From contig JBDRQD010000006.1 in the NCBI GenBank assembly GCA_043826455.1, positions 29,049-93,048 on the forward strand: a DNA stretch of 64,000 bases, written 5' to 3'. The notes beneath the pieces are model-generated. The model searched no databases. It was not told where the DNA came from and worked only from the letters and a program-made list of their open reading frames with translations. Below, piece by piece: positions 1 through 14,816 of this stretch; position 1 is the first letter of the stretch, and each line of letters starts with the position of its first letter. The DNA is from Candidatus Bathyarchaeota archaeon. Lineage in GTDB: Archaea; Thermoproteota; Bathyarchaeia; TCS64. Position numbers and translations under genes: made by a program.

Positions 1-106
1 AGGCCAGGGCCTCGTATACGTCCTCCACGGTTTTGATGAAGTGGCTCTGGGCGAGGATGATGTTGCAGCCCTCGGGCACCTTGAGCTTAACCATTTTCAG
101 CTCCAA
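1..106 (-). CDS. Adenosine-specific kinase family protein (N-terminal part, runs off the window)
   Basis: Own translation of the minus strand gives [35 protein letters not shown]; the [20 protein letters not shown] motif is typical of this family. Confidence 0.75.
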
Positions 107-185
107 CGCGTTTCACGCCTGAATCTTGGCGGGCTGCGCTTTTAACTGGTTCGTAATCCATAAGTCTCTGGCCGCGACTGGTTCC

Positions 186-824
186 ATGATGTCTGGGGAC
201 CGCAAGGAACCGGATGACCTGGCCGAGAGGATCACCGGCTGGCACTACAGTCTGGGGTGGGGGGACGGCTCGGACAGCGTGGCACCCTACGTGCCCACCC
301 CCATGAACGTGGTGCACGAGATGCTGAAGCTGGCCAGGGCTGGGCCGGGGGACGTGCTCTACGATCTCGGCTGCGGGGACGGCAGGATCATCCTGGCCGC
401 CGTGGAGGAGTACAACGTGGACAGGGCCGTGGGGTACGAGATTAACCCCCAGATGGCTGAGGCCACCAGGATGAAGGTGTACGATAAGGAGCTACAGGAC
501 CGGATCGCGGTGCTTCAGGCAGACTTTTTCGGGGAGGACCTGTCGGAGGCCTCTGTGGTGACGCTGTACCTGACCACGTCGGGTAACGCCAAGCTGAGGC
601 CTAAGCTGGAGAAGGAGTTGAGGGTGGGGGCCCGGGTGGTTAGCCACGATTTCCCGGTCTCGGACTGGGTTCACAGCCGGGAGGAGGAGCGGTTCTACAT
701 GGTGGGCAGCCACAAGCTGTTTCTGTACGAGATCCCTGAGGCTTACATGCTGGATAAAAAGGCCCCGGAGGGGGACAGCTGGGACCGGCTGCGGCGGATG
801 TTTGAGCGCCGCGACTCCCGTTGA
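186..824 (+). CDS. Class I SAM-dependent methyltransferase
   Basis: APYVPTP, LYDLGCGDGR (motif I), VVTLYL, RVVSHDF; start moved to ATG at 186. Confidence 0.85.
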   Translation: MMSGDRKEPDDLAERITGWHYSLGWGDGSDSVAPYVPTPMNVVHEMLKLARAGPGDVLYDLGCGDGRIILAAVEEYNVDRAVGYEINPQMAEATRMKVYDKELQDRIAVLQADFFGEDLSEASVVTLYLTTSGNAKLRPKLEKELRVGARVVSHDFPVSDWVHSREEERFYMVGSHKLFLYEIPEAYMLDKKAPEGDSWDRLRRMFERRDSR

Positions 825-852
825 CTGTGGCTGTACCTTTCAGGGAAAAATT

Positions 853-1785
853 TTAGTAGACGCCTAGGGCTAGGGCGATGATGGCCATCCTGGCGTAGAT
901 GCCGTGCTTCATCTGCCTGAAGTACCAGGCGTTGGGCAGGTCATCCACGTCGGTGCTGATCTCGTTGACCCTGGGCAGGGGGTGCATGATGGCCACGTCC
1001 TTCTTGCCGTGCTTCTGGACCATCCGTCTGTCCATGATGTAGCTGTCCTTGACCTTGTCGTACTCCTCCTGGCTGGCGAACCGCTCCCGCTGCACACGGG
1101 TCATGTAGACCACGTCCAGCTTGGGCATGGTCTTGGGCAGATCGGATACCTCGACCACCTCTATCTTGTCCTTGACCTCCTCGATGACCTCAGGCTTCAT
1201 CTTCAACGCATCAGGGGCTATGCAGTAGACCTTGACATCATAGTTCCGGAGCGCCTTCAGGAGGCTGTGGACGGTGCGCCCGTTCTTCAGGTCCCCCACC
1301 ATGCCTACGGTGAGGCCGTCGATGCCGCCTTTGGCGTAGCGTATGCAGTGGAGGTCCAGCATGGTCTGGGTGGGATGCTCCCAGGTTCCGCTGCCTCCGT
1401 TGATGTAGGGGACGCTGCTCACCTTGGCTGCGCGGAGGGCGGCGTCGTTGTCGGGGTGCCTCATGGCTATGATGTCTACGTAGTTCATGACGGTGCGTAT
1501 GGTGTCCTCGAAGCTTTCGCCTTTCTTGGCGCTGCTTGTCATGGGGTCGGCCACGGTGGTGACGTTGCCGCCTAGCCTGAACATGGCTGACTCGAAGCTG
1601 AGCCTGGTGCGGGTGCTGGGCTCGAAGAAGAGGCTGGCCAGGACCTTGCCCCGGGCCATGTCCGAGCCCTGCTTCTCTAGGTCCACCATCTCGTCGGCCA
1701 CGTCCAGGATGAAGTCTAGTTGGGCGCGGCTGTAGTCGCTCATGCTGATGAAGTGCTTGCCTTTGAAGTCGGCTTTACTAACCAT
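853..1785 (-). CDS. pyrB: Aspartate carbamoyltransferase catalytic subunit
   Basis: FFEPSTRTRLSFE, HPTQTMLD, GDLKNGRTVHSL, MTRVQRER, MHPLPR. Confidence 0.97.
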   Translation of the reverse strand: MVSKADFKGKHFISMSDYSRAQLDFILDVADEMVDLEKQGSDMARGKVLASLFFEPSTRTRLSFESAMFRLGGNVTTVADPMTSSAKKGESFEDTIRTVMNYVDIIAMRHPDNDAALRAAKVSSVPYINGGSGTWEHPTQTMLDLHCIRYAKGGIDGLTVGMVGDLKNGRTVHSLLKALRNYDVKVYCIAPDALKMKPEVIEEVKDKIEVVEVSDLPKTMPKLDVVYMTRVQRERFASQEEYDKVKDSYIMDRRMVQKHGKKDVAIMHPLPRVNEISTDVDDLPNAWYFRQMKHGIYARMAIIALALGVY

Positions 1786-1889
1786 GGGGATGTTTTGGTT
1801 TGGTGGGGATATATTTGTTGCCGTGGTTGGTTCTCAATTGGACGTTGTGCTCCATAATTTTTATAATATAAATTATGTTACAGTTTATT

Positions 1890-2210
1890 ATGCCGCTGGA
1901 AGACTTCTTGATGCCTGGGGAAAACATCAGGTATTCGAGCGCGTCGCCGGTTGAGTATCAGGGGGCGCAGTACTTTTTCTTGATCACTGACAGGAGGGTT
2001 CTCTGGCACAGGCAGCAGGGACTAGTTTTCAAGAAGGATAATGTAATCTCCGAGAACATAAGCGAGATAGTAGACATGTCCTACTCTGAGAAGGGCCTTG
2101 TCTCGAAGAAGGGAATAGTTAACATCACCACCTCAAGGAAGAAACTCGAGTTTTCGGGTGCGAAGGACTCGATCATGGAGATCTACAAGGAGCTCCAAAA
2201 CTTCATTTAA
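1890..2210 (+). CDS. Small PH-like (bPH) domain protein
   Basis: LMPGENI...FLITDRRVLW...GLV...I..I......GLVSKKGIVNI pattern of prokaryotic PH domains. Confidence 0.6.
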   Translation: MPLEDFLMPGENIRYSSASPVEYQGAQYFFLITDRRVLWHRQQGLVFKKDNVISENISEIVDMSYSEKGLVSKKGIVNITTSRKKLEFSGAKDSIMEIYKELQNFI

Positions 2211-2211
2211 T

Positions 2212-3108
2212 TTATGTGACAGGTTGACCGAGCAGCCCCTGCGGTTTGAAGTACATTGTCAGAGTCATTACGGCTATGGGCACGAGGGGCCTGTACTCGC
2301 CCATCCAGACGCCTATGGTGTGGTTAGCCCACACGATTAGCGTGATTTCAACCACTCCCATGATTAGGCCCCCCACCGCGGCCCCTCTCATGCTTCTCAC
2401 ACCTCCCAGTAGGCACGAGGCCAGGACTCCTGTCATGAGGGTGGTGCCCATTGCTTGGGGCCATACGAACCATATGCTCCCGTAGGCCCCCGCCAGCCCC
2501 GCCAGGCCTCCAGCCAGGGCCCAGGCCCGCCATCTGACCCTGCTCGGGTTGACGCCTTGCACCATTGCTAGATCGGCATCGTCAGCCACGGCCTTAAGGG
2601 AGGCCCCGATGATAGTCCCCTTGAGCAGGCGCTCATGGAACAGAACCGAGACGACGGCGATAACCGTGGATACTATGAATACGCCTGGGACCCACCCCAC
2701 GGTGAAATCGTAATTTGGCAGGCTGAAATACTGAGCATATGCACCGAAGTGGGTCATCAACCAGTACGAGTAGCACTCCACGAGCGTGGACAGTATGATT
2801 CCTGCGGCAATGAGCGCCAGGGTTACATACACGGGGCCCCTGCGCCTCCTCAGCAGGGGCTCGACCACCAATGCGCAGCAGAGGGCGCCTGTCAGCCCGC
2901 AGACAGTGAAGGCTGCGGGTAGGCTCAGGTAGACCTGGGCTCTGAGCACCCTAGCCACGGTGAACCCCGTGTAGGCTCCGATGGCAGCCGTGGGCCCGAT
3001 GGTGAGGTTGAAGGTGTCCGATGTGAGGTATGTGAGGGTGTGGGCCTGGGCCATGAGCACCAGCATGGACGCGTAGATGAGGGTGTTCATGAGTAACGCG
3101 ACGCTCAT
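2212..3108 (-). CDS. Branched-chain amino acid ABC permease (LivH-like), orphan
   Basis: Multi-TM protein; G.SLKAVADDADLAMVQGVN, LAGLAG, LLGGVRSMRGA, KPQGLLG. Confidence 0.8.
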   Translation of the reverse strand: MSVALLMNTLIYASMLVLMAQAHTLTYLTSDTFNLTIGPTAAIGAYTGFTVARVLRAQVYLSLPAAFTVCGLTGALCCALVVEPLLRRRRGPVYVTLALIAAGIILSTLVECYSYWLMTHFGAYAQYFSLPNYDFTVGWVPGVFIVSTVIAVVSVLFHERLLKGTIIGASLKAVADDADLAMVQGVNPSRVRWRAWALAGGLAGLAGAYGSIWFVWPQAMGTTLMTGVLASCLLGGVRSMRGAAVGGLIMGVVEITLIVWANHTIGVWMGEYRPLVPIAVMTLTMYFKPQGLLGQPVT

Positions 3109-3156
3109 ATAAAGATGGAGGCGACAGTAAACGTTTTAACGTTTATGGGGGGCGTT

Positions 3157-4023
3157 TCAGAAGCCCATGCGCCACCCTGCGCCCAGCTCCAAGTAATCCT
3201 CCCCGTAGCTGTCCCTGAAGGCGCTCCGCGCCAGTTCCCCGCTGCAGTGGGTCGGCGCAGCCTTCTCGACCCCCAGGCCCTTGAGCTCGGCCACCAGGCC
3301 GTCCAGGCTGGCCTTGTCCGCGCCGCCCAGGTGGAAGCCGCCGAAGACGAAGCTGACATCCAGGCCCGTCGCCTCCTCGGCCGCCTGGACCAGGTTCTGG
3401 ACCCCCGGGTGGCTGCACCCAGTGATGAGGACCAGCCCCCCGCCAGTGTTAACCATGAGGGCCTGCTCGTCGGGATTAAAGTCCAGCACCCTTGTGGTGG
3501 CCACGCCGGGGCAGATGAGTGTCGCGTTCCACGTCTCCATCAGGGTGGCTCCGCTGTCTCTCACCCTGCTCTTGATGTGGTAGGGGAACGACTCGGGTAG
3601 GTACACCGTCATGTCGCTGTTGGCCTCCAGCACCAGGCCCAGGCCCCCCACGTGGTCCCAGTGCTCGTGGCTCAGCACCAGGTAGTCGACCTCAGCAAGG
3701 TCGACGCCCAAAGCCTCCACGTTGTGGGCCAGCACCTCGGGGTCTCCCCCCGTGTCGAAGAGAACAGTGTCGTCCCCCAGCTCAACCAGGCAGCTGAAAC
3801 CCCACTCTGTGGCGCAGCTTCCGTTGAAAGGTATGTTATCGTAGAGGATGGTGAACCGGCCGCTACGCTCAACCAGGGCTAGGGCTGTCTCTCCTTCGCC
3901 GGCCTGGTCCCAGCCCAGGAGACCCGGAGCCAGAAAGTAACCCGCGACGGCTGCGGCGACCACGAGGGCGAAGCCCGCCACCCATCTACCGTTGAGCCTC
4001 ATAAACCAGACATAAGCGGCCAT
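3157..4023 (-). CDS. MBL-fold metallo-hydrolase with N-terminal membrane anchor
   Basis: EWGFS, LFDTG, LSHEHWDHVGG, ITGCSHPG, FGGFHL, PTHCSG; hydrophobic N-terminal segment. Confidence 0.85.
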   Translation of the reverse strand: MAAYVWFMRLNGRWVAGFALVVAAAVAGYFLAPGLLGWDQAGEGETALALVERSGRFTILYDNIPFNGSCATEWGFSCLVELGDDTVLFDTGGDPEVLAHNVEALGVDLAEVDYLVLSHEHWDHVGGLGLVLEANSDMTVYLPESFPYHIKSRVRDSGATLMETWNATLICPGVATTRVLDFNPDEQALMVNTGGGLVLITGCSHPGVQNLVQAAEEATGLDVSFVFGGFHLGGADKASLDGLVAELKGLGVEKAAPTHCSGELARSAFRDSYGEDYLELGAGWRMGF

Positions 4024-4081
4024 TCATTAAAGGGCATTCAATGAACCGTCTTTGGGTGTAAAGACGCGTCTTGACAGGTGA

Positions 4082-4516
4082 CTAAGTCTCAGGGTAGAGC
4101 CCTATTTCTCTAAGGAACTCTCTGAAGGAGGGCGTCAGGTCTATCCCCAGGAAATCCGCCGGCTCCACCCACCTGGCCTCCAGGGCATCATCCATGGCAG
4201 TGGCCTCGCCCTCCATGACCCTAGCCAGCAGCTGAACTATGATGAAGTGGTACCGGACCCGCCCCTCGTCGTCCCTGACGATCTTGTCCACCACACCGAT
4301 CCTGTCCACCACCTCCACCCTGAGCCCCGTCTCCTCCAGCGCCTCACGAACCGCCGCGTCCCTGACCCTCTCCCCCACCTCCACCAGGCCACCGGGCACC
4401 GTCCACAGCCCAGCGTCAGGCTCGGCCCCCCTCCTGATGAGCAGAAACTTGCCGTTCCTCTCGATGAGGATGCCTACGCCCACGATGGGCCTCTCAGGGT
4501 AAAGCCTGCCAGACAT
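4082..4516 (-). CDS. NUDIX hydrolase
   Basis: Nudix box PGGLVEVGERVRDAAVREALEETGL; start at ATG 4516. Confidence 0.92.
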   Translation of the reverse strand: MSGRLYPERPIVGVGILIERNGKFLLIRRGAEPDAGLWTVPGGLVEVGERVRDAAVREALEETGLRVEVVDRIGVVDKIVRDDEGRVRYHFIIVQLLARVMEGEATAMDDALEARWVEPADFLGIDLTPSFREFLREIGLYPET

Positions 4517-4546
4517 ACAGCTTAATTGCAGCACCCAGCAGCTTAT

Positions 4547-6067
4547 TTAGTCGTCGGCCACCTGCTCCCGCCCCGCGGCCTCCATGTGGATGAACCTGCT
4601 CATGGGCGTGCTCAAGCTGCTAGCTGGGTACACCTCAGGCAGCACTTTCACCCAAATGGGGAACCTGCACCTGAGCGCCGTCCCCTTAACTATGGCTTCA
4701 CCCGGCGGAAGGTAGCCTATGAGCTCAGCGAACTCGGCCCCCATGATCTCAGCCATCCTCGCCTTATCAACGTCCTCCAGGCTGTGACACACCACGTTAT
4801 TCGCACACTGGGTCACCACCGTCTTCTCCACGGTGCTCAGCCTCTGGGTCACCGCCCACAGCCCCACACCGTTCCTGCCGCCATTAGTCGCGATCTCCTT
4901 GATGACCCCCAGCAGCTTGCCCCTGCTCTCCTTCTCACCGATCTCAAAGACGCCCCGCTGAGGGGCATAGTACATGGCCTCCTCCAAGACGATGATGCAC
5001 CCGAACTTGCGGTTCTCCAGGGCCTCCCCGAAGATGCGGCGCAGAACCTGGGCCACCACCAGGTGCTTCTGGTCCCAGGTGTCCTTCCCGGCGCTCAGGT
5101 CCATGATCACCACGTGCCTGTCCCGGAGCAGCTCCACCGGGTCCAGGGTCTCCATGTCCCCGTCCGGGATCAGTCGGCTGATGCCCACGCTGTTCACCAC
5201 CTGCATCCTGTACGCCTCGAACTCCTCCGGCTTCTTGTTGAACCCCAGCCTCTCCAGGTGAACCTGATCCAGTGCCCTGCGCAGGTTCGCCTTGGTCACC
5301 GTCGCCTGCTGCGCGTACAGAATCTTCAGGGCGTGGATGAGTATCTTGGCGTTCCACCAAGTCTTCTGCCACCCGAACTCCGCCACGTAGTCCTCCCAGG
5401 GGATGCCCCCTGGCTCGAAGAACCTGCTCCAGGGGACACGCAGAACCTTGTCTGAGCCGAGACGCTCCTGTAGGCTGCTGTACTCCCCGTCCTTATCCAC
5501 TATGAAGAAGCGGACTGGGGGGTCCGCAGCAGCGGCTCTAGCCACCATGGTCACCGCCGTGGTGGTCTTCCCCGTCCCCACCGCCCCACATATCAGGCAG
5601 CTCTGCCGGATCAAGCTGTACATCCCCAGCTCCACGTCTAGGTCCGTCCCTGGGTCCGTCCCCAGCAGTATCCTCCAGTCGCCGCTGGGCTTGGTGAACT
5701 GGGCGATGACATCCCTCTCGGCCAGGTACACGGGCGTGTTCGGCTGAAGCGGATACCTCAACGGCCTGAGGCTGCCCCCCTCATCCATCCACCCCCACTG
5801 GTACGCCTGAGCATGAAGCGTGCTATCCTCAAAGTCGTTGATGACTCTGCCGTCCCTGAGGAGGGCCTCCTCGTACTCCCTGACCCGCTTATGGGGGTAC
5901 ACCCGGGTCACCTGGTAAACCACGGGGCACCCGTTCTTAGGGTGCTCCATGTACACTAGGTCGCCCTTGGCCAGCTCCAGGCCCCTGAGGAGCAGCACAG
6001 TGATCTCGCTGATGCCGTACTCGCCCGTGGCGCTGTACGTGTGCCCGACCCTCAGCCCACCATCCAC
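4547..6067 (-). CDS. HerA/FtsK-family ATPase (HerA-like)
   Basis: N-terminal HAS-barrel-like region, Walker A GAVGTGKT, IVDKDGEY, Walker B IIVLEEA, TQR motif, LPPGEA. Confidence 0.85.
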   Translation of the reverse strand: MDGGLRVGHTYSATGEYGISEITVLLLRGLELAKGDLVYMEHPKNGCPVVYQVTRVYPHKRVREYEEALLRDGRVINDFEDSTLHAQAYQWGWMDEGGSLRPLRYPLQPNTPVYLAERDVIAQFTKPSGDWRILLGTDPGTDLDVELGMYSLIRQSCLICGAVGTGKTTTAVTMVARAAAADPPVRFFIVDKDGEYSSLQERLGSDKVLRVPWSRFFEPGGIPWEDYVAEFGWQKTWWNAKILIHALKILYAQQATVTKANLRRALDQVHLERLGFNKKPEEFEAYRMQVVNSVGISRLIPDGDMETLDPVELLRDRHVVIMDLSAGKDTWDQKHLVVAQVLRRIFGEALENRKFGCIIVLEEAMYYAPQRGVFEIGEKESRGKLLGVIKEIATNGGRNGVGLWAVTQRLSTVEKTVVTQCANNVVCHSLEDVDKARMAEIMGAEFAELIGYLPPGEAIVKGTALRCRFPIWVKVLPEVYPASSLSTPMSRFIHMEAAGREQVADD

Positions 6068-7107
6068 TCGCCCTCACCCCAGTACGGCGCCAGCGGAGAA
6101 ACGTCCCCCGTCTCCCGGCCCACCCTGCTTATTATCTCGCTGAAAACGTCGCCGATGAAGCGGCGGCTCACCTTCACCTCTTCGTCGGCCCGGACGATGG
6201 GCAGCGGTATCCCGCTCCAGATGCTGGTCGCGTAGCAGTAGTCGGCCACGTCGTCCACGGCCCCCAGGCAGAACGCGGGGAGGTCCACCCTGATGGGGGG
6301 GAGGTCCCACTCCTGGGTCAGCCGACAGTAGAACCCGTACACGGGCTCCTGAACCACGTCCATCATCTGGCTCCCCCGGGATGCCATCCGCATCGCCGTC
6401 CGGGGGCTGAAGATGTCTGTGCGCTCCCCTGGCATCAGTGTCTGGTGCATCAGGTAGCTGTCACTCAGGTCCGTCTCGGCGCCCAGCCCCAGGTAGTGAA
6501 CCAGGTACCGGGCGCTGGGTCGCTTCACCACCCCGGCCACCGTCACCCCCCGGTCCCTGCACACCCTGAGTAGCCCGTTCAGGGCGTCCACCAGCCGCCG
6601 CCTGTCCTCCTCGCAGCCGGCGGCCCCCCACCAGCCGCTCAGCGCCAGGGGCCCGTCCACCAGCATGAGCTCCACCTCGCCGCCCCCTAGCAGGAACTCC
6701 CTGGCGGTCTCGTAGAGCCTGGCCTCCCGGCGTAGGTTCACCGACCCTGCGAAGCCCACGCCCACCGAGTAGGGCTCGCACATGCTTTCGGGGGGCAGGT
6801 AGAAGCGGCCTCCCTGGGGAAGCGTGTAGACCAGGGCGCTGATTACCGCGTACTGCCTGGAGGCCATGGGTATCACCTGGCTCCCCGCGTCCACACCAGC
6901 CACCCACGTGTACGCCTCCCGCTTCCTTAGAGGCACCACATCCATCTCGCTCCTGATACGCTCCGCCAGCTCCCTGACCAGCGGGGCCTCGGTCAGCACG
7001 TCTCCCGTGATCTCGGCCAGGAGCAGGTTCCTTATGCTGAGGCTGAGGCTTTCGGCCTGCGGCCTGGGATCAGCCAGCTCCCCCCGTTCCTTAACCGCGA
7101 GCACCAT
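6052..7107 (-). CDS. NurA-family nuclease
   Basis: VAGVDAGS, LMLVDGPL, GVVKR and GIPLPIVRAD motifs; overlaps the herA-like start. Confidence 0.8.
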   Translation of the reverse strand: MVLAVKERGELADPRPQAESLSLSIRNLLLAEITGDVLTEAPLVRELAERIRSEMDVVPLRKREAYTWVAGVDAGSQVIPMASRQYAVISALVYTLPQGGRFYLPPESMCEPYSVGVGFAGSVNLRREARLYETAREFLLGGGEVELMLVDGPLALSGWWGAAGCEEDRRRLVDALNGLLRVCRDRGVTVAGVVKRPSARYLVHYLGLGAETDLSDSYLMHQTLMPGERTDIFSPRTAMRMASRGSQMMDVVQEPVYGFYCRLTQEWDLPPIRVDLPAFCLGAVDDVADYCYATSIWSGIPLPIVRADEEVKVSRRFIGDVFSEIISRVGRETGDVSPLAPYWGEGEWMVG

Positions 7108-7306
7108 GATACCACGTCCGTTGAAACCGTTGACGTACAACACTTTTTTTCCACCGTATTTAACCCTTGCGATCGCTTTGAGCGTAATTTCTGATAAACC
7201 AGGTTTTATTTATATACTCAGAAATTAAGACGCTCGCCCATCTATGTCTATCAATGTAAAAACGCATGGACCCCAAAAGTAAAGTTAAATACCACTTTAC
7301 ATAGAT

Positions 7307-7567
7307 ATGACAACTAGAAAGATGAGTAAGAACCAGAGCCTAAAGGACACCATTTTCAAGGAGTTTCTCAGGAACCCGGCCCTTGGGCCCACCGAGATGG
7401 CGGAGAAGCTGGGCGCCAACTACAACAGCGTAAAGGCTGCTTTCGCCAAGCTCGCCGAGGAGGGACTCCTCGAGCGCTCAGGCAGAGGTAACTACGAGCC
7501 CAGCGTCCCGGGCATCCTCCTCAACCTCATGGCCCGCGTGGAGGCCCTGGAGACGAAGGCACCATGA
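7307..7567 (+). CDS. Small winged helix-turn-helix protein (1 of 5)
   Basis: GPTEMAEKLGANYNSVKAAFAKLAEEGLLERSGRGNY. Confidence 0.8.
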   Translation: MTTRKMSKNQSLKDTIFKEFLRNPALGPTEMAEKLGANYNSVKAAFAKLAEEGLLERSGRGNYEPSVPGILLNLMARVEALETKAP

Positions 7568-7824
7568 GCGAGACCTGGGACAAGGTCCTCAAGGACGTCT
7601 CACCCACCACCAGCCAGTTCAAGGTCCTAGTCTACCTGGCCTTCCGGGGCCCCAGCCAGCCCAGCGACATCAGCAGCGAAACGGGCATAGCCCCAGGCAC
7701 CGTACGGCCAGCCCTTCGCACCCTCCTGGACAAGGGCTACGTGGCCCAGCAGGAGGACGGCAGCTACAGGAGCCTCGTCCCCTTCACAGACGTCGTCTCC
7801 CACCTGTACGCGGCTCAGAAGTAG
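7564..7824 (+). CDS. Small winged helix-turn-helix protein (2 of 5)
   Basis: QPSDISSETGIAPGTVRPALRTLLDKGYV...GSY; ATGA overlap with the upstream gene. Confidence 0.8.
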   Translation: MSETWDKVLKDVSPTTSQFKVLVYLAFRGPSQPSDISSETGIAPGTVRPALRTLLDKGYVAQQEDGSYRSLVPFTDVVSHLYAAQK

Positions 7825-7838
7825 CCGGAGGAAAAGCC

Positions 7839-8090
7839 GTGGGTTCCGAGGAGCTCGAGGGCCTGAAGCGGGCGGACAGCCAGAGGGACGTCTTCCTCAT
7901 GTTGGTCCAAGGCGGAGAACCCATGAGTAGCCAGGAGATAGCCGACAAGCTTGGGCTCACGGTGAACGCCGTCAACATTGCCCTCTTCAACCTCAACAAG
8001 AAGGAGCTCGTTGAGCGGGTGAGCCGAGGCGTATACAGGTACCGGCTCGGCCCCATCCTGGTGGAGCTCCTGAAAAAGTACTTCGAGTGA
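7839..8090 (+). CDS. Small winged helix-turn-helix protein (3 of 5)
   Basis: MSSQEIADKLGLTVNAVNIALFNLNKKELVERVSRGVY; GGAGG SD-like sequence upstream. Confidence 0.8.
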   Translation: MGSEELEGLKRADSQRDVFLMLVQGGEPMSSQEIADKLGLTVNAVNIALFNLNKKELVERVSRGVYRYRLGPILVELLKKYFE

Positions 8091-8344
8091 CCCGCATGAA
8101 GCTGGATGAGTTGGACCCCGAGACCTCGGCCTTCAAGATACTGGTCCACCTCACCTTCCGGGGCCAGCCCATGAAGCCGATAGACATCAGCAGGGAGCTG
8201 GGGGAGAACAGCAGCAGCGTCCGGGCTAGGCTCGCCGAGCTCAAGCGGGACGGCCTGGTGGACTCCACCGGTGACGGGTACGTGGCTCTCACCACCACTT
8301 ACGACATCTTGATGAAACTTTATAGACAACCAAAGGAAAAGTAG
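8087..8344 (+). CDS. Small winged helix-turn-helix protein (4 of 5)
   Basis: MKPIDISRELGENSSSVRARLAELKRDGLV..GDGY; GTGA overlap with the upstream gene. Confidence 0.8.
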   Translation: MTRMKLDELDPETSAFKILVHLTFRGQPMKPIDISRELGENSSSVRARLAELKRDGLVDSTGDGYVALTTTYDILMKLYRQPKEK

Positions 8345-8355
8345 GGTGAAGTAGA

Positions 8356-8673
8356 TTGTCTGAACAGCAACTGGGGGAGATGAAGGAGAAGATGGAGACC
8401 TTAGTAGGGCTGCAACGGGCGCCCAGCCAGTTCATGGTCTTCTACCACCTGCTCGGCACCTCCAAGACCATGACGGTGAAGGAGATCAGCGACGAACTGG
8501 TTCTCACCCCCAAGGCCACGGAGAGGGCCGTAGCCAAGCTCCTGGAGAAGGACATGATCCAGAGGAGCCCCTTCCGGGACGGCGGCTACAACGTGGACGC
8601 CAAGGGCGTCACGTTGATGCTGCTGGTAACCACCATGGAGCTATACCAGGAGCAAAAGAAGAAGAAAGGCTAG
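8356..8673 (+). CDS. Small winged helix-turn-helix protein (5 of 5)
   Basis: MTVKEISDELVLTPKATERAVAKLLEKDMIQR...GGY. Confidence 0.75.
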   Translation: MSEQQLGEMKEKMETLVGLQRAPSQFMVFYHLLGTSKTMTVKEISDELVLTPKATERAVAKLLEKDMIQRSPFRDGGYNVDAKGVTLMLLVTTMELYQEQKKKKG

Positions 8674-9137
8674 TCCCGGCCGAGCCTGGGGAGGACCTCC
8701 TCCTCGACCCACCTGACGCCCTTCATGGTGAGCCTGTACGCGCTACCCTTACCCTCCGGCTGGAACACGTGGCCTCTGCGCCTCATCTCGTGGAGCCTTG
8801 CAGCCACCGTGATCTTCTTGCCGCTGCTGGCCAGCCGGTCCCGAATCGCCTTGCCAGTGGCCTCATGGTTCCTCATGGCGTACATTATCAGGCCCACGGC
8901 CTCATAGTGGCTCAGCTCCTCCCGCGTCACGATCGTCGGCCCATCTCGGCCCACCCTCACGATGCCCTCCAGGACATCCTCGGCCTCCGCCGCGGCCACC
9001 TCGGCTAACCTGCCCTGGACAGCGGCCACGAACTCCCCGGTGAGCCAGCCCAGCCCCTCCATGACCTCCTCCGGGGACCCTCCTGAGACCTCCAGTTCAC
9101 CGTACCCGGTCTTGACCCGCACCTTAAGCCGTGGCAA
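8670..9137 (-). CDS. Two-domain protein: N-terminal beta-hairpin/helix plus C-terminal wHTH
   Basis: C-terminal TVAARLHEMRRRGHVF...YRLTMKGVRWV; N-terminus resembles that of the neighbouring gene. Confidence 0.65.
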   Translation of the reverse strand: MPRLKVRVKTGYGELEVSGGSPEEVMEGLGWLTGEFVAAVQGRLAEVAAAEAEDVLEGIVRVGRDGPTIVTREELSHYEAVGLIMYAMRNHEATGKAIRDRLASSGKKITVAARLHEMRRRGHVFQPEGKGSAYRLTMKGVRWVEEEVLPRLGRD

Positions 9138-9573
9138 CCTTGGCCTCCTCCACGTTCAGCAGGTACAGGTAGCCCCGCTTACTGTCCTTCCACCTGCGGA
9201 GGCTCCCCTTCTTCACCATCCAGACAAGGACGCCGCTGAGGGTGGTCTTGGGGAAGAATATGGCGTTGGCCTCCATGGCCTTCCTTAGCTCCCCGATGGC
9301 GCGGGGCGTCTTCCCCCAATCGGACCCCAGGAGGCTCTGCACGGCCTCACTGCACTGGTTGGTCCTTGAGATGTTAGGATACTTCTCTATGGAGGCCCCA
9401 GCCTCGGCCTTAGCCGGCTTGGGGTGGGGCACCTCAGCGTTGAAAGCCTTGGACACCTTACCTATTATGAGGTCCAGGTCGTCCAGGGTGGCCAGCACCT
9501 CCTCCTTGGCTCCCCCCAGCTCCACCTCCACGTTGCCTATCCTGACCTTGAGGCGGAAAGAGGGCTCAGACAT
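9124..9573 (-). CDS. Two-domain protein: N-terminal beta-hairpin/helix plus C-terminal wHTH
   Basis: PRAIGELRKAMEAN...TTLSGVLVWMVKKGSLRR...GYLY; TATA-like TTTATAA near 9618. Confidence 0.65.
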   Translation of the reverse strand: MSEPSFRLKVRIGNVEVELGGAKEEVLATLDDLDLIIGKVSKAFNAEVPHPKPAKAEAGASIEKYPNISRTNQCSEAVQSLLGSDWGKTPRAIGELRKAMEANAIFFPKTTLSGVLVWMVKKGSLRRWKDSKRGYLYLLNVEEAKVATA

Positions 9574-9627
9574 GGCAACACCCAGAACTTCTGATACCAT
9601 AATAAGCTCTAAGACCGTTTATAATAC

Positions 9628-11526
9628 TTATGGGGATTGGGTTTTATCCTTCAGAGCCGCCTGGAGCAGCCTCTGAACGTCCCTAGGCTGAGCCCTGCCC
9701 CGCACCTGCCCCATGACCACCCCCATGAGCGGCCCCATAGCCCCCATACCCCTCTCAGCCACCAGGCCCGCCCTCTCCTCCACCACAGCCCCTATGAGTG
9801 CCTCCAGCTCAGAGAGGCTCATGGCCTCCAGCCCCAGGGCCTTCAACGCGTCCCTGGCGCCGCTGCCCGGATGCTTGGCCAGCCAAGTCAGCACGTCGGG
9901 TAGTGCCTCCTTGGCCGTGGACCCCTCCTTGACCAAGGCGAAGGAGCCCCGGATGGCGTCGTCTGTCAACGCCTCCACGGGGACGCCGTCGCGCCTCAGC
10001 CTAGTCAGGTCCTCCGTGAGGGTGACAGCCAGTAACGTGGTGCTGTGGCCTTCGGCAGAGAGCTCCTCGAAGAGGCCCATGTAGTCCGAGTCCACAGTCT
10101 GGGTGGCCAGCTTCTCGTTGAGCCCATGCTCCTTCATGAAGCGCCTGAGCTTCACCTCAGGCATCTCGGGAAGCCTCACCCTCAGCGCACTGATCCTCTC
10201 AGAAGTGATCTGGACGGGCTTGACATCCGTCTCAGGGTACATCCTGGCCGCCCCGGGGCGGGGCCTGGTGAACCGGGTAGTCCCGTCCGGGTTGGCAGCC
10301 CGAGTCTCGGCGGGCACCCCCATCAGGGCCATCCGGGCCCTGTCCACTACTGCCACCAGGGCGGCGGCGCACTTGTCGTGGTCGTCGGCCACGATGACAG
10401 CCGCGTCCCCCTCAGCAGCGTCCACTGCCTCTCTGAGGGCGCTGACCTCCTCCTCGGTGACGCTGTACCCGGGGAGTTCATCCGTGTGGAATATGCCCTT
10501 CACGTTGCCCATGAACTTGGCGTGGTCACTCATCTCGGTGCCCAGCCTCCTCCCAGGGCATAGCTCCTTTCCAGTGAGGCCCGCAAAGCCGGGCAGCTTG
10601 ACAGCCAGCACGACGCCGCCCTTCTTGAGGGTGCCGCCCAGGACCTTGCTCTTGGTGCCCTTGAACACGCCCGAGACGTCCACATGCTCCTTCTTTAGCT
10701 GGTTCCCCTTTACTCCCCGTTTCTTGAGCTCCTCCGTGATCTCCAGGAGGGCCGCCTGGCGCATGGCCTCGTACTCGACCACCGTAGGCAGCAGCCCCAG
10801 GTCCTGGACACCCTTGATCTCTATGATGGCTCCGCCCCGGATGCTGACGTTCACGTCCTGCCTGATGGTGCCCAGACCCCTCCGCACCATGCCCGTGGCC
10901 CTGAGGATGCCGCCTATGCGGGCAGCCGCCTCGTAAGCCTCCTGAGGCGTGTGTATCTCGGGGGCCGTGGTGATCTCTATGAGAGGGATGCCCAGCCGGT
11001 CCAGCCTGTAGGTGATGGTGTCCCCCTCCTCGCTGATCTTCCTCGCCGCGTCCTCCTCTACCGCCACCTGCTCCAAGTGGATCGTCTTGCCCGCGGCCTT
11101 GATCTCCCCGCCCAGGCTGACGACGCTGGTGCGCTGGAAGCCACCCGTGTTGCTGCCGTCCACCACCGTCTTCCTCATGACCTGAATCTCGTCAACAGGG
11201 GCACCCCCCGTCATCAGTGTGAAAGTGAGGGCTATGTCAACGGACTCCTCGTCCAGGGGCCCCGGAGGCTCCTCGTCCATCTCCACAAGGCAGTTAGTCT
11301 CGTGGTCCGCCAGATAGATGATGGTCTTGCCCTTGAGGAACTCGAAGAGGGCGGCGGGGTCGATCTCCCCCAGCTCGGACTGACTGGGCCTGAGCCTCCG
11401 CGTGAATGTGTAGTCGGGCTCCCTCTCGCTGAGCCTGGGGGGGCACGAGCAGAACAGCTTGTGCCGCGTGGCCAGCTCCTGGTGTATCTCTATGCCCACT
11501 GTGAGCCCCAGCTTCTTGTAGTCCAT
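9628..11526 (-). CDS. gatE: Glu-tRNA(Gln) amidotransferase subunit E
   Basis: GIEIHQEL, VDGSNTGGFQRT, RLDRLGIPLIEITT, GLGTIRQDVNVSI, PGAARMYPETD. Confidence 0.97.
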   Translation of the reverse strand: MDYKKLGLTVGIEIHQELATRHKLFCSCPPRLSEREPDYTFTRRLRPSQSELGEIDPAALFEFLKGKTIIYLADHETNCLVEMDEEPPGPLDEESVDIALTFTLMTGGAPVDEIQVMRKTVVDGSNTGGFQRTSVVSLGGEIKAAGKTIHLEQVAVEEDAARKISEEGDTITYRLDRLGIPLIEITTAPEIHTPQEAYEAAARIGGILRATGMVRRGLGTIRQDVNVSIRGGAIIEIKGVQDLGLLPTVVEYEAMRQAALLEITEELKKRGVKGNQLKKEHVDVSGVFKGTKSKVLGGTLKKGGVVLAVKLPGFAGLTGKELCPGRRLGTEMSDHAKFMGNVKGIFHTDELPGYSVTEEEVSALREAVDAAEGDAAVIVADDHDKCAAALVAVVDRARMALMGVPAETRAANPDGTTRFTRPRPGAARMYPETDVKPVQITSERISALRVRLPEMPEVKLRRFMKEHGLNEKLATQTVDSDYMGLFEELSAEGHSTTLLAVTLTEDLTRLRRDGVPVEALTDDAIRGSFALVKEGSTAKEALPDVLTWLAKHPGSGARDALKALGLEAMSLSELEALIGAVVEERAGLVAERGMGAMGPLMGVVMGQVRGRAQPRDVQRLLQAALKDKTQSP

Positions 11527-12857
11527 CACGCGGCACCTCCAAGGTACGGCGTCCTGGGGTTGAACTCCCCCACCAAGTTCGCGGTCAGCAGCCTCTTAGC
11601 CTCCTCATGGTCGTCGGTCTGTCCCAGGCACCACTTGAGCTTCACGTAGGCCGTCTCCCCGTGCATGTCCCCCAGGGGCACCGCGCCCCGGTCCACCAGC
11701 TCGCGACCGTGGCTGTAAACGTTGAGGTTGACGCGGCCCCAGATGCACTGGCTGGTGATGCCCACCACCACGCCTTCCTTTCTGGCCCTCGCCACGGCGG
11801 GCCAGAGGTTCTTGTTCACCTGGCCCAGGCCCGTGGCCTCGATGATGAGCCCCCTGTACCCCTCGTCCAGGTAGCGCTCCAGGAGTGTGAGGCTGAAGTC
11901 GGGATGGAACTTGATGAGCGCAACCCTGTCGCTGAACCTGTTGAGGAGCCTGGGCTCGCACTCTTGGCGCAGCCTGACCCTGTCGTTCAGCATCTCCAGC
12001 TTCCCGTCCCGGTACCTTGCCAGGGGCCAGTCGTTCACCGGCTGGAAAGCGTACCTTGCGCTCGTGTGGCACTTCCGCACCTTGGTGCCCCGGATGTAGG
12101 AGATGCTGTCGTCGCTGGTGCCCTCGTGGAGCCCCACGCAGACCTCCGCGAAAGGCGCATTAGCCGCGGTGTATACGCCCCCCATGAGGTTGGTGGCGTT
12201 GTCGCTGCTGGGCCTGTCACTGCTCCTCTGGCTCCCCACGAAGACCACGGGCACGGGCAGGTCCTGGAGCGCGAAGCTGAGGGCCGCGCTGCTGTACGCC
12301 ATGGTGTCCGTGCCGTGGGTGAATATGACCCCGCTGGCCCCCGCCCTGATCTTGTCGTGCGCTCGCTTCGCCATTCCCGCCCAGTGCTCGCTGCCTATGT
12401 CCTCGCTGAAGACACTGTACAGGATGTCAGCCTCCACGTCAGCCACCTCCGTCAGCTCAGGCACTATGCCCAGGAGGTCGCGGCTGGTCATGGCAGACAC
12501 GACGCCGCCGGTCACGTAGTCCACCCTGCTGGCGATGGTTCCCCCGGTGCTGATGATGCTCACCCTGGGCAGCCCCTTCTTGGCCTGGGGTAGCGGCGGC
12601 TGCCTGAACTCGGGCTTCGGCGCCACACCCACCTTCTCTATCTTCATCCCGCTGGTGTAGGCGACGCCGATGTTGTACCCCGATTTGAGCTTGATGACGA
12701 GGTGCCTGTCGTCGTAGCTCTCAACCCTGGGCATCAGGCTCCCTTCGTACCGCTGGTTGTTGACAGTGACTGCCAGCTTGTCCCCTATCTCCGCCCCCGC
12801 CCCGGCGAGGGCCTCACGCAGTTTTCCGCGGTACCCGGTGAGCCTGTCCTCAGTCAT
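11526..12857 (-). CDS. gatD: Glu-tRNA(Gln) amidotransferase subunit D
   Basis: KLKSGYNIG, STGGTIASRVDY, HGTDTM, GSQRSSDRPSSD; adjacent to gatE. Confidence 0.97.
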   Translation of the reverse strand: MTEDRLTGYRGKLREALAGAGAEIGDKLAVTVNNQRYEGSLMPRVESYDDRHLVIKLKSGYNIGVAYTSGMKIEKVGVAPKPEFRQPPLPQAKKGLPRVSIISTGGTIASRVDYVTGGVVSAMTSRDLLGIVPELTEVADVEADILYSVFSEDIGSEHWAGMAKRAHDKIRAGASGVIFTHGTDTMAYSSAALSFALQDLPVPVVFVGSQRSSDRPSSDNATNLMGGVYTAANAPFAEVCVGLHEGTSDDSISYIRGTKVRKCHTSARYAFQPVNDWPLARYRDGKLEMLNDRVRLRQECEPRLLNRFSDRVALIKFHPDFSLTLLERYLDEGYRGLIIEATGLGQVNKNLWPAVARARKEGVVVGITSQCIWGRVNLNVYSHGRELVDRGAVPLGDMHGETAYVKLKWCLGQTDDHEEAKRLLTANLVGEFNPRTPYLGGAA

Positions 12858-12902
12858 GTGAATCAGAGAAGTTTACTCTCTTCCGATTAATAATAGGCGT
12901 GG

Positions 12903-13208
12903 TCAGATCATCTGGAGGTAGGTGCGCTTGGTGGGCCTGTAGTTGCCTGGGCCCAGAAGCGCCTGAAGCCTGTTCCAGAGCTCCGTGATCCTTGGGTCCT
13001 CCCTGATGGCCGAGGACACCATCTTGTAGTGGTCTTGGTCGCTGAACCTGTTGATCTCCAGCCACCTACGGGGGTCCTTCTCGTCCCTGTACAGCTCGAC
13101 CTTGAGGCAGCCCAGCTCCAAGTATATATCGATGGCCTGCTTCTCCAGCTTCACGTACTCTATGCTCTTCTCCTTAGGAATCCGGTACTGGTAGACCACC
13201 GTGTACAA
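12903..13208 (-). CDS. ABM-like dimeric alpha-beta barrel protein
   Basis: About 100 aa; GCLKVELYRDEKDPRRWLEINRF pattern. Confidence 0.55.
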   Translation of the reverse strand: MYTVVYQYRIPKEKSIEYVKLEKQAIDIYLELGCLKVELYRDEKDPRRWLEINRFSDQDHYKMVSSAIREDPRITELWNRLQALLGPGNYRPTKRTYLQMI

Positions 13209-13253
13209 TGCGCTCCCCCAGACTAGGGACACGGCTCGGGATAAAAACGCATC

Positions 13254-14816
13254 TCACAGGGGCTTAGATACGTATGGGCCGTCCTTCACGTAGCCCAGCC
13301 TCCGGTAGTACTCCTTGGTGCCCAGGGCGCTCATCACCACCATCCGCTTCATGCCGCGGTCCGCGGCCGCCCTCTCAGCCTCCTCCATGAGGGCCTCTCC
13401 CCAGCCCCTGTGCTGCCAGTCAACCCCAGGCGCGCCCACGGGGGTCATGCTCCCGTAGACGTGGAGCTCCCGCACCAGGCCCGTGTCCACGGTGATCTCG
13501 GGCCTGAAAGCATCCTCCGAGGGTAGCCTGAGCCTGAGGAAACCCACCAGGACGTCGTTCTCAGGGTCCTCCACACTGATGAAATCCTCGGTTCCGCCCG
13601 ACGCCTCGTAGACTCTGTGGACCATGTCCAGGGCTTCTGGCTCCACGCCCTCCCTGGCCCTGTGCCCCGCCTCCCTGCACCTGATGCACCGGCACCTTGA
13701 GCCGCGCTCCCTGAGCCGCTCTTGGGCCAGCTGCCGGAGGTTACTCTTGTCCACACCGGCCTCGATCTGGTGGACAGGGATGTCCCTCTGGACCCTCATT
13801 ATCCTGACCCAGGGAGGTACCATCTCCTTGACTCGAGCCACCAGCTCTGCGGCCTCCTCGGTGGCTAGGGGCGTGTACTCACCGCGCCGCCACCACTCGT
13901 ACAGCTTGGTGCCCTTAACCACCAGGGTCGGGTATATCTTGAGCATATCAGGCTTGAAGGCCGGGTCCTCGAAGACCCTGCGGAACCCCTCCAGGTCCCG
14001 CTCAGGGGTTGAGCCCGGCAGCCCAGGCATCATGTGGTAGCAAACTTTCAGGGCCGAGTCCTTCAGCCGACGGGTCCCGTCCACCACGTCCCTAACCGTA
14101 TGGCCCCTGTCCACCAGCCTGTAAAGGTCGTCGTAGATGTTCTGGACCCCCACCTCCACGCGGGTCACCCCCAGACCCAGCATGGCGTCGATGTCCTGCT
14201 GCGCTAGGCAGTCGGGCCGGGTCTCCACGGTTATCCCCACGTTCCTGATCTCTGAGGAATCGGCTTGGAGCTTGGCCTCCTCCAGGCTCCCCGACTCTGC
14301 GCCGTTCATGGCGTCCAGGCAGCCCTCCACGAACCACTCCTGGTAGCCGCGGGGGCTGGCCGGGAAGGTGCCCCCCATGATGATGAGGTCGACCTTGTCC
14401 ACGGTGTGGCCTATGGCGCGCAGCTGCTCGATGCGGCTCCGCACCTGAGCGCCTGGATCAAACATGTTCTGGGCGCCCCTCATGGCGGCGGGCTCGTGAC
14501 CCGTGTAGCTCTGGGGGCTCCCCGCCTCCGGGCCACCCGGGCAGTAGGCGCACCTGCCGTGGGGGCAGGGATACGGCTCCGTCATGACGGCCACCACGTT
14601 GACGCCGCTGATAGCTCGGGACGCCTTACGCCTCAGCAGGGGGATGAGCCGCTCCCGCTCCTCGGGCCTCAGCGCCGCGATGATCTCCGAGTTGCCGGGA
14701 ATCCTGCCCAAGGAATACTTCCTCGTGGCCCTGTACTTGGCCACGTCCAGGTCCTCCCTGGTAGGCTCATCCAGGTAAAGAAGCGTCTCAATTATCTCTC
14801 GGAGAGCGGCGTCCAA
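13254..14816 (-). CDS. elp3: Elp3 radical SAM/GNAT tRNA U34 modification enzyme
   Basis: CPHGRCAYCPGG, SYTGHEP, ETRPD, KIYPTLV, RVQRDIP, CRCIRCRE, RELHVYG, QHRGWG; start moved to TTG 14816. Confidence 0.95.
   Translation of the reverse strand: MDAALREIIETLLYLDEPTREDLDVAKYRATRKYSLGRIPGNSEIIAALRPEERERLIPLLRRKASRAISGVNVVAVMTEPYPCPHGRCAYCPGGPEAGSPQSYTGHEPAAMRGAQNMFDPGAQVRSRIEQLRAIGHTVDKVDLIIMGGTFPASPRGYQEWFVEGCLDAMNGAESGSLEEAKLQADSSEIRNVGITVETRPDCLAQQDIDAMLGLGVTRVEVGVQNIYDDLYRLVDRGHTVRDVVDGTRRLKDSALKVCYHMMPGLPGSTPERDLEGFRRVFEDPAFKPDMLKIYPTLVVKGTKLYEWWRRGEYTPLATEEAAELVARVKEMVPPWVRIMRVQRDIPVHQIEAGVDKSNLRQLAQERLRERGSRCRCIRCREAGHRAREGVEPEALDMVHRVYEASGGTEDFISVEDPENDVLVGFLRLRLPSEDAFRPEITVDTGLVRELHVYGSMTPVGAPGVDWQHRGWGEALMEEAERAAADRGMKRMVVMSALGTKEYYRRLGYVKDGPYVSKPL

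Follow-up and report, generated by a model that had tools for sequence, protein, structure and literature searches.

Locus organization

The analysed window is a 64,000-nucleotide stretch of one contig of the source genome (G000), in which a sequence-only reading had proposed a nurA-herA-nudix gene set divergent from a cluster of small winged-helix genes. All ten open reading frames of that arrangement (nudix, herA, nurA and h1–h7) were found, together with three conserved segments between nurA and h1, as follows.

4082–4534, minus strand: nudix gene (PF00293, 79.7 bits, over the Pfam cut-off)
4547–6067, minus strand: herA, a paralogue of the 'T' clade, 506 aa (Pfam DUF87 over cut-off)
6052–7143 as open reading frame, likely 6052–7107, minus strand: nurA paralogue (PF09376, 52.3 bits)
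7157–7163, minus strand: putative TATA-like box for nurA-herA (TTTAAATA columns conserved across the alignment of 62 gaps)
7180–7235, no strand: 56-bp candidate control element (inverted arms around a TATA-like box, outer GAGC/GCTC ends)
7273–7291, plus strand: second AT-rich motif before h1 (conserved block in the gap alignment)
7307–7567 as open reading frame, likely 7322–7567, plus strand: h1, single winged helix with a C-terminal helix (Pfam winged-helix family)
7564–7824, plus strand: h2, winged helix (TrmB/MarR_2/IclR over cut-off)
7839–8090, plus strand: h3, winged helix, weakly Lrs14/Sta1-like (Pfam winged-helix family; NF040939 below cut-off)
8087–8344, plus strand: h4, winged helix (Pfam winged-helix family)
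8356–8673, plus strand: h5, winged helix (Pfam winged-helix family)
8670–9137, minus strand: h6, two-domain protein (C-terminal winged helix in the predicted structure)
9124–9573, minus strand: h7, two-domain protein (C-terminal winged helix in the predicted structure)

The nurA gene overlapped herA by 16 nt. From alignments, nurA probably starts at ATG 7107, its open reading frame reaching GTG 7143, and h1 probably at ATG 7322. The gap between them (7108–7321) was AT-rich as described, with 37% GC against 58–68% in the genes, and the motif at 7273–7291 may be a second promoter or operator for h1. The convergent stop codons of h5 and h6 overlapped at CTAG 8670–8673, an arrangement that is typical and not fixed (over 47 loci the gap had a median of −4 and ran from −74 to +145). 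GC3 of the module genes was 0.81–0.89, equal to that of gatE, gatD and pyrB, and Rfam gave no matches within 3500–11000. The nudix gene lay 3′ of herA in most loci of the host's order, often with insertions between, and was missing from some (e.g. L049, L056 and L076); nudix-like genes also adjoined the module in L073–L075 and L079 and, by eye, in L135–L137. It is a loosely linked passenger or accessory gene.

A paralogous NurA-HerA pair

HerA matched PF01935 (DUF87) with 43 bits against a cut-off of 23.2 and was alignable to the solved HerA 4d2i, and its K167 (Walker A), E362/E363 (Walker B), R398 and T407-Q408-R409 were invariant in 21 of 21 sequences. The NurA score exceeded its family cut-off of 21 bits, and D85, E140, D163 and K207 were invariant in all 20 sequences, so that the catalytic motifs of both proteins are intact. 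These four residues would correspond to D58, E116, D133 and K202 given for Sulfolobus solfataricus NurA in the available text of PMC3326311, a correspondence drawn by motif because the profile search retrieved no solved NurA; the position matching Y298 is apparently Ile. A weak Pfam match to FtsK was also recorded for HerA.

A canonical nurA-herA-mre11-rad50 operon was found on a separate contig of the same genome (G000:C15). Against the canonical HerA model NF040937, with a cut-off of 800, the HerA of the window scored 43.2 bits and the C15 copy 170.5 bits. In a quick, unrooted tree, the T clade and the group of canonical HerA with the C15 copy each had 100% SH-aLRT support; this was the second of two quick trees and was built without the K clade, which joins by long branches, and without 20 other rows. 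By these comparisons, the window's pair is a paralogue of the mre11/rad50-linked pair and not the canonical pair relocated, which disposes of the concern that it might be the genome's only, orthologous HerA-NurA. The reported absence of mre11 and rad50 from the window was borne out, both genes lying at C15 behind the second nurA-herA. The description of the pair as stand-alone holds within the host's order, where the locus lacks mre11/rad50, but not beyond it, since seven related loci had mre11 nearby; close orthologues with a neighbouring mre11 were those in L074, L079 and L097. A search for mre11 in five genomes of the order, with a distant query and no positive control, gave no match and carries no weight. 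HerA orthologues were present in 40 of 40 genomes of the order.

Compared with the canonical HerA-NurA complex of S. solfataricus (PDB 4d2i; PMC3326311), the pair shares gene adjacency, the motor motifs of HerA and, in NurA, an acidic triad and a lysine, as far as the available text of that source describes them. The Walker B motif is EEAMY here and EEAH in the canonical set, and the arginine-finger motif is GGRNG instead of EGRKFG. The separate HerA clade, the apparent Ile and the locus without mre11/rad50 in this order set the pair further apart, and winged-helix partners and a control element do not belong to the system as described in that text.

Two families of winged-helix proteins

A profile of h3 had matches in 39 of 40 genomes of the order and in none of 111 other genomes of the class, and by sequence search h1–h5 are found only in the host's Bathyarchaeia order. 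A gene-neighbourhood survey upheld the proposed synteny, as h1–h5 adjoined nurA-herA in 49 of 50 informative loci; inserted genes interrupted h4-h5 in 7 of 53. The five genes encode single-domain winged helices and are paralogues in fixed order (HHalign 99.6% for h2-h4 and 98.6% for h3-h5) with differing recognition helices, that of h1 including a conserved YNSVK region. They share size and fold class with Lrs14/Sta1 of the Sulfolobales (NF040939 and NF053606), the best NCBIfam matches for h3 and h5, but at 24–27 bits against 80–90 the membership cut-offs were not reached (h3, 26.7 bits for NF040939 with cut-off 90; best NF053606 score among h1–h5, 24.1 bits with cut-off 80), and unlike those proteins h1–h5 form five fixed-order paralogues limited to one Bathyarchaeia order. 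A 230-aa protein found among h6 genes elsewhere (h9) was considered as a fusion of h1–h5 and rejected (HHalign at most 5.6%).

No Pfam match over cut-off was obtained for h6 or h7, and no solved structure matched either protein over its full length, by profile or by fold. The h6 model (pLDDT 87.4) comprised a hairpin-helix N-terminal module, a long helix, a second hairpin and a winged helix, and that of h7 (pLDDT 79.6) a hairpin-helix N-terminal module, a flexible linker and a winged helix. Residues 70–155 of h6 resembled winged helices of the PadR/MarR type (79 aligned, best Z 10.6, rmsd 2.4), and h7 also gave winged-helix matches (69 aligned, best Z 9.9, rmsd 1.9), so the C-terminal domains of both predicted models have a winged-helix fold; in the search for a solved fold like that of the N-terminal module (residues 1–60), the match lists were taken up by the winged helix. 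The sequence-only reading of h6 and h7 as two further winged-helix genes was therefore right as to that domain, but they are two-domain proteins and not extra copies of h1–h5.

The two proteins are homologous to each other (HHalign 95.6%), and h7 to h8 (99.3%), whose genes face nurA in other lineages. The h6 family comprised 365 clusters at 50% identity and occurred in 121 of the 301 phylum genomes sampled, while it was not found in the other 180, whole families included. By sequence, h6/h7 is a phylum-wide, undescribed family. A nurA-like gene lay within 3 kb of h6-family genes in 27 of 40 loci and gatE in 15; the other 13 loci had no nurA within that distance, a point against the explanation favoured below. 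Outside the class the figures were 17/20 for nurA and 2/20 for gatE, within it gatE was near in 13/20 and nurA in 10/20, and in held-out loci a nurA-like gene was near in 16/20. The family accompanies three HerA clades, all outside the canonical group. In the host's order, h7-h6 is transcribed separately and can be absent or moved: no h6 was found next to the cluster in L017 or L065, and in G026 h7-h6 lay on another contig. Because h1–h5 and h6/h7 are thus two families of differing range, the earlier idea of one assembly of all seven winged-helix proteins has no support. A complex prediction of h7 with h6 returned the verdict 'no answer' (score 0.02, mark 0.32) and is silent on pairing either way. 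In G107, a further nurA-like/herA pair beside cdc6 was preceded by a 135-aa protein in a similar layout, which was not counted as a family member because its profile match was at most 2.2%.

A conserved element and its second site

The 56-bp element has arms at 7185–7194 and 7218–7227 in inverted orientation, 23 nt apart, and contains a TATA-like box at 7209–7216 (plus strand). It was present in 61 of 62 loci of the order, always 56 bp long and at a conserved spacing of 16 nt from the TATA-like box of nurA. When only the arms were scored, it reached 51.2 at the locus, and the genome's next-highest site had 4.8; each genome held one full copy. Scans of loci from outside the order did not find it, a restriction that parallels that of h3/h5.

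The core of the element recurred at G000:C81:7796–7840, in a region with no nurA-herA nearby, where its TATA box points, at promoter distance, at the following gene.

G000:C81:7858–8106, strand not given: candidate co-regulated gene for an 80-aa protein (element core upstream)

A matrix trained on the 56-bp element only located the core 16–20 nt upstream of this gene in 16 of the 19 loci held out, and the same matrix matched 1 of the 3,715 regions that precede G000 open reading frames of at least 150 aa. The element core before this distant gene is a sequence feature new to this study. A search recovered the gene from no more than 26 of the order's 40 genomes, a point against the explanation favoured below, and from none of six genomes outside the family; its product had no Pfam match. 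Q75 and L78 at the C terminus of the protein were invariant in 11 of 11 sequences, and measured against the PIP-box motif QxxhxxAA (PMC4929162, available text), position 7 was often H, Y or F and position 8 usually not aromatic, so the protein appears to end in a partial PIP (PCNA-binding) motif. It is similar to TIP, the PCNA inhibitor of Thermococcales, as far as the available text of PMC4929162 describes it, in being small and lineage-restricted with a terminal PIP-like motif, but the C-terminal motif here has the Q and the hydrophobic position 4 without the two aromatics, and no Pfam match points to homology.

In G000, neither the canonical nurA nor other repair genes were found to be preceded by anything element-like, and this is therefore not a broad damage regulon. 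According to the available text of PMC6061795, the Orc1-2/DDRE damage regulon of Sulfolobus, in which nurA and herA are damage-induced, has the motif ANTTTC. At this locus both element arms contain a promoter-proximal AATTTC hexamer, but the 6-bp match is weak and lies here inside a 45–56-bp inverted repeat that each genome has at two sites only, and the likeness is a lead only. The G000 genome yielded one Orc1/Cdc6 gene.

Boxes at matching promoters in other lineages

Where h8 is divergent, WTGNNCAW occurred just before the nurA TATA box with 41 matches in 17/17 loci (shuffles, mean 6.4) and, in held-out genomes, 25 matches in 9/9 (mean 3.4, maximum 10); arrays of WACGTW preceded h6 operons with 47 matches in 20/25 (mean 11.7) and, held-out, 35 in 9/18 (mean 4.1), both motifs having been chosen by eye and some of the genomes held out being close kin. 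Neither was enriched in the nurA-h1 gap of the host's order, so no h6/h7 site was identified there. Scans of G000 for WACGTW and WTGNNCAW pairs gave scattered matches.

Interpretation

The conserved synteny and the paralogy to the canonical pair make a dedicated module, as first proposed, well supported. A second NurA-HerA, winged-helix proteins and a shared control sequence point to an unstudied DNA-maintenance circuit. The explanation we favour, with a probability of about one half, is a chromosomal, vertically inherited accessory NurA-HerA end-processing machine, probably serving genome maintenance, under dedicated winged-helix transcriptional control. By analogy with the characterised complex, HerA would form an ATP-driven ring feeding DNA ends to a NurA dimer. 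The h1–h5 proteins, each with its own conserved recognition helix, may form heterodimers or a heteromer that would bind the 56-bp element at its two arms, which are unequal and flank the TATA box, and thereby switch the h1–h5 operon, the divergent nurA-herA(-nudix) operon and the distant 80-residue gene together. The h7-h6 proteins could be an older partner set of oligomerising DNA-binding proteins, which in other lineages would recognise boxes of their own at the corresponding promoters. The trigger, the weakest step, would most likely be DNA damage or replication stress. Of the roles proposed earlier for the winged-helix proteins, regulation receives direct sequence support from the position and recurrence of the element. 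The HerA orthologues in all 40 genomes of the order, the mre11 near seven related loci and the partial PIP motif of the 80-residue protein also speak for the favoured explanation. Seven dedicated factors for two promoters are unusually many, which counts against this explanation.

We consider it somewhat unlikely that the winged-helix proteins, above all h6/h7, are instead physical subunits, a DNA-binding adaptor loading or gating the HerA-NurA ring, with the boxes serving self-regulation only. Tight, co-directional h6-h6-h6-h7-nurA-herA operons (L073, L078, L080 and L087), overlaps of h6-type genes with nurA-herA in many lineages and a DUF87 ATPase fused to an h6 domain (P0078, L162) fit such a role equally well, and the linkage retained over three distant HerA clades and the several diverged paralogues per operon, like those of heteromeric complexes, argue for it. 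In this order, however, h7-h6 is separate, missing or moved, the second element copy has no nearby nurA-herA, and h6-like domains are also fused to kinase and TIR domains, so the ATPase fusion is not specific. That the winged-helix proteins are self-regulating chromatin or transcription proteins riding in a conserved gatD-gatE / nurA-herA region, with no common job, is quite unlikely: gatE is the more frequent neighbour within the class, several h6 operons have no herA nearby (L131–L134, L138–L141) and h3 and h5 are weakly Lrs14/Sta1-like, but outside the class the gatE link is nearly gone while that to nurA is kept, the link outlasts changes of orientation and HerA clade, and the spacing between the element and the TATA-like box of nurA is conserved.

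A module for DNA transfer or defence, with NurA-HerA making or destroying foreign or donor DNA, would have precedents, in the available texts, in NurA-HerA pairs beside type III CRISPR loci (PMC6546367) and in the proposal that HerA-NurA prepares DNA for Ced/Ted transfer (PMC9905601), and HerA had partial PADLOC and NCBIfam matches. These systems, like anti-phage HerA pairs and the CedD/CedB ATPases, share a HerA-family ATPase with a nuclease partner or DNA-transfer role, yet every match was far below the curated cut-offs (NF042943, 53.9 bits against 800; CedD, 28.1 against 600), NurA had no PADLOC match, and no cas or Ced-type membrane channel genes were seen in the flanks (window 1–16000). 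The module occupies a fixed chromosomal site among housekeeping genes in 40/40 genomes of the order, its GC3 equals that of gatE, gatD and pyrB, no HerA or h6 relatives were found on viral contigs and no h6 relatives on plasmids; the defence role suggested earlier loses its footing, and this explanation is very unlikely.

HerA belongs to the FtsK-HerA superfamily. With the weak FtsK match and one full element copy of invariant length per genome, a segregation or resolution pump with the element as a single dif-, parS- or ter-like landmark is conceivable, but the core recurs as a putative promoter of an unrelated gene and the element was not found outside the order, making this most improbable. 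An origin or terminus position of the locus likewise had no support: it lay ~85 kb from cdc6 in the single complete chromosome of the order that was checked, and no common chromosomal position emerged from three genomes of other orders.

Significance

To our knowledge, little is known of the regulation and targeting of archaeal double-strand-break resection outside the Sulfolobales, and we know of almost no genetics in the abundant Bathyarchaeia. The literature searched, with subscription journals and supplements outside its scope, held no description of this arrangement. Its candidate regulators, the defined site of 56 bp, the putative second target gene and the boxes particular to each lineage make the module testable with purified proteins and short DNAs, the host ungrown. 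A broader and doubtful conjecture is an ancient Thermoproteota genome-maintenance circuit in which heteromeric winged-helix complexes would bind or sense DNA as well as load a NurA-HerA machine dedicated to the circuit; in this order a five-subunit heteromeric regulator would also run an SOS-like mini-regulon that links the processing of ends with a replication brake, a small protein binding PCNA. If true, a heteromeric winged-helix regulator made of five paralogues would be an unusual one among archaea. The h6/h7 proteins add a phylum-wide family, lacking a Pfam model over cut-off, that stands alongside three non-canonical HerA clades.

Gene content and conservation of the module

The sequence-only reading had placed ten ORFs in the module, namely a nudix gene, herA, nurA, five small winged-helix genes (h1–h5) and two further genes containing a winged helix (h6 and h7). 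All ten were recovered at the same positions, as was the overlap of the h5 and h6 stop codons at CTAG, although relatives differed in the h5–h6 gap (47 loci; median −4, range −74 to +145). The Nudix, HerA (DUF87) and NurA proteins exceeded the Pfam cut-off and h1–h5 were assigned to winged-helix families, while no Pfam family above the cut-off was found for h6 or h7. The predicted structures of h6 and h7 (pLDDT 87.4 and 79.6) start with an N-terminal hairpin-helix and end in a C-terminal winged helix, which matched the fold in solved structures with Z of 10.6 and 9.9, respectively. Alignments favoured 7107 and 7322 as the likely starts of nurA and h1. Records of relatives were nearly all titled Bathyarchaeia or Bathyarchaeota.

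Profile comparison separated two gene sets. The h1–h5 genes were mutually related (h2–h4 99.6%, h3–h5 98.6%), each with its own conserved version of the recognition helix, and the h3 profile had matches in 39 of 40 genomes of the order TCS64 versus 0 of 111 others. Homology along their length linked h6 and h7 (95.6%), and h7 also proved homologous to h8, an h7-like gene facing nurA elsewhere (99.3%). No module protein reached the curated Lrs14 cut-off.

Synteny between the winged-helix cluster and nurA-herA, on which the sequence-only reading depended, was upheld: among the 50 order loci whose sequence extends 3.75 kb or more upstream of herA, h1–h5 were present in 49, h7 in 48 and h6 in 45, to which tblastn added one further h6-bearing locus. 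Locus L035 had none of h1–h5, h6 or h7 nearby, and in genome G026 h7-h6 adjoin gatE on a separate contig. In most order loci the module is flanked by gatE and gatD together with one ABM-like and one elp3-like gene (9628–14903 in the window). An unrelated 257-aa gene splits h4 and h5 at L013:6937–7710, L016:6962–7735 and, along with other genes, L022:2665–4309. Three loci in records titled as bacteria (L001, L005 and L038) share the synteny with HerA identities of 75–96%, and their contigs were probably misbinned.

A paralogue of the canonical NurA-HerA pair

The genome of the window (G000) contained two DUF87 and two NurA matches, and the other pair starts a nurA-herA-mre11-rad50 run at C15:207495–213686. 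The window's pair is a paralogue and not a relocated canonical pair, and it differs from the canonical system in both operon context and orthology. In a quick, unrooted tree of 39 rows, built after dropping the K clade along with 20 more rows, the C15 HerA clustered with NF040937-type HerAs (SH-aLRT 100%), whereas the window's HerA fell in clade T (100%) beside another non-canonical clade, I (99%). A quick 83-row tree recovered T and I, with K long-branched and the C15 HerA unplaced. T-type HerA was found in 40/40 order genomes, with a close orthologue in 3/111 others, and canonical-type HerA in 39/52 order genomes by a single-protein query, rates that come from different methods and are not strictly comparable.

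The HerA motor motifs were invariant in 21 aligned sequences, as were D85, E140, D163 and K207 in 20 aligned NurAs, which correspond by motif to the catalytic residues given in an excerpt of PMC3326311; a conserved NurA tyrosine appears to be replaced. Winged-helix partners were not described in the available portions of PMC9905601, 10.1101/2024.09.27.615169, PMC5797428, PMC6546367 and PMC7554672, and none of the papers listed by literature searches seemed to describe them. The module is a real and apparently undescribed form of the NurA-HerA machine.

The h6/h7 family across the phylum

The h6 profile matched 365 clusters, and it had matches in 121 of 301 Thermoproteota genomes, with whole families lacking any. 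We fetched 40 h6 loci, picked among the listed best matches to cover different families, and found a nurA-like gene within 3 kb of h6, followed by herA, in 27 and gatE in 15, using profiles built partly from the same loci. Outside the class Bathyarchaeia, nurA-like genes were near h6 in 17/20 loci versus 2/20 for gatE; inside the class, the counts were 10/20 and 13/20. Pfam independently identified DUF87 in 8/8 partner HerAs tested and NurA in 5/8 partners. Of another 20 loci, 16 had the pair next to h6, and three of the four misses stop at a contig edge; kin among the loci are not independent. The partner HerA belonged to clade T, I or K, with the winged-helix genes co-directional or divergent, and mre11 lay within the fetched stretch at seven loci (L074, L079, L093, L097, L136, L145 and L146).

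A putative control element shared with a second locus

A GAGC...GCTC element was found in 61 of 62 nurA-h1 gaps (7180–7235 in the window) and measured 56 bp every time in a search that tolerated 54–58. With an arms-only matrix, the window's element scored 51.2 versus 4.8 for the next-best genomic site, and the element was found in none of the out-of-order loci scanned. A 21-nt identity revealed a second site at G000:C81:7796–7840, within the following feature.

G000:C81:7796–8106 (L271:1797–2107): element core and a gene of about 80–82 aa

The core pattern gave 45 matches in 34/41 family genomes, the majority at the nurA locus, versus 5 for the reversed control. In the second context, seen at 13 loci, the arms enclose a TATA box directed toward the 80-residue ORF, which is usually convergent with a PF01261 gene, presumably endonuclease IV to judge by its motif. 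A matrix trained solely on the nurA-locus element exceeded a score of 10 in 16 of 19 held-out regions upstream of the 80-aa gene, against a background of 1/3,715. The sites end 16–20 nt upstream of the modelled start, and the three misses were a degenerate site, a second paralogue and an out-of-order match. This recurrence of the core at a fixed distance before the 80-aa gene marks the element as a putative promoter-operator common to at least two loci.

The 80-aa gene occurred in 26/40 order genomes, all of a single family, with one weak match among 111 others. Its protein had no Pfam match and 19 homologues, all named just 'hypothetical', and its C-terminal end, Q-x-x-L, partially fits the PCNA-binding motif as defined in an excerpt of PMC4929162. 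Two similar, low-scoring AT-rich sites were also seen at G000:C77:33826 and C5:1799, one of which precedes a 204-aa protein resembling a helix-turn-helix protein.

Other lineages carry other boxes, both picked by eye. Loci in which h8 faces nurA have WTGNNCAW boxes directly next to the TATA box (41 matches in 17/17 loci versus a shuffle mean of 6.4; held-out, 25 in 9/9 versus 3.4), and WACGTW arrays lie upstream of h6 operons (47 in 20/25 versus 11.7; held-out, 35 in 9/18 versus 4.1, one genus contributing most). Neither was enriched in the order's own nurA-h1 gap. One box type per type of winged-helix set is the pattern that self- and operon-regulation would be expected to produce.

Proposed role and alternatives

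We assign a probability of about 0.5 to the module being an accessory end-processing machine within a small regulon. Here we infer DNA binding and complex formation by h1–h5, whose heteromer would bind both element arms flanking the TATA box and jointly regulate nurA-herA, the 80-aa gene and the h1–h5 operon itself, together with the activity of the machine, which may work like the canonical archaeal HerA-NurA resection machine, and its trigger, probably DNA damage or replication stress. As a weak lead, the AATTTC hexamer in the element is the same as that of a Sulfolobus damage element in the available part of PMC6061795.

That the winged-helix proteins instead serve as a physical adaptor is possible at clearly lower odds, and the two readings are not exclusive. 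A conserved neighbourhood without shared function seems unlikely. We hold DNA transfer or defence to be improbable: no module protein reached the curated cut-offs for anti-phage HerA or CedD, HerA and h6 relatives were not found in the viral contigs searched, nor h6 relatives in the plasmids searched, and the module's GC3 resembles that of housekeeping genes. A segregation landmark is the most improbable reading.

Further arrangements

At L093:2653–16720 (G042:C1), two pairs stand in tandem in the single run gatD-gatE-h6-h6-h6-h7-nurA(K)-herA(K)-nurA(I)-herA(I)-mre11-rad50. A conserved 230-aa gene with no Pfam family ('h9') lies on the opposite strand amid h6 genes at L139, L140, L141, L147, L149, L151, L152, L158, L159, L223 and L224. 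Enlarged I-clade HerA genes of 836–1,400 codons (L153:12133–15288, L158:2562–5156, L159:2842–5352 and L224:10594–14793) possibly contain inteins. Fusions of h6-type domains (P0008, P0078 at L162:7772–9172, P0150 and P0143) involve protein kinase (two copies), DUF87 ATPase, CAP12-type TIR and AAA-like domains. Outside the class, a T-like nurA-herA pair has no winged-helix neighbour (L207:6468–8890, G189:C1). A further nurA-like/herA pair is head to head with cdc6 (L201:5485–10595, G107:C1), downstream of a 135-aa hairpin-helix and winged-helix-like gene in which no h6/h7 homology was found, and the region is flanked by genes that we take to encode both DNA polymerase D subunits.
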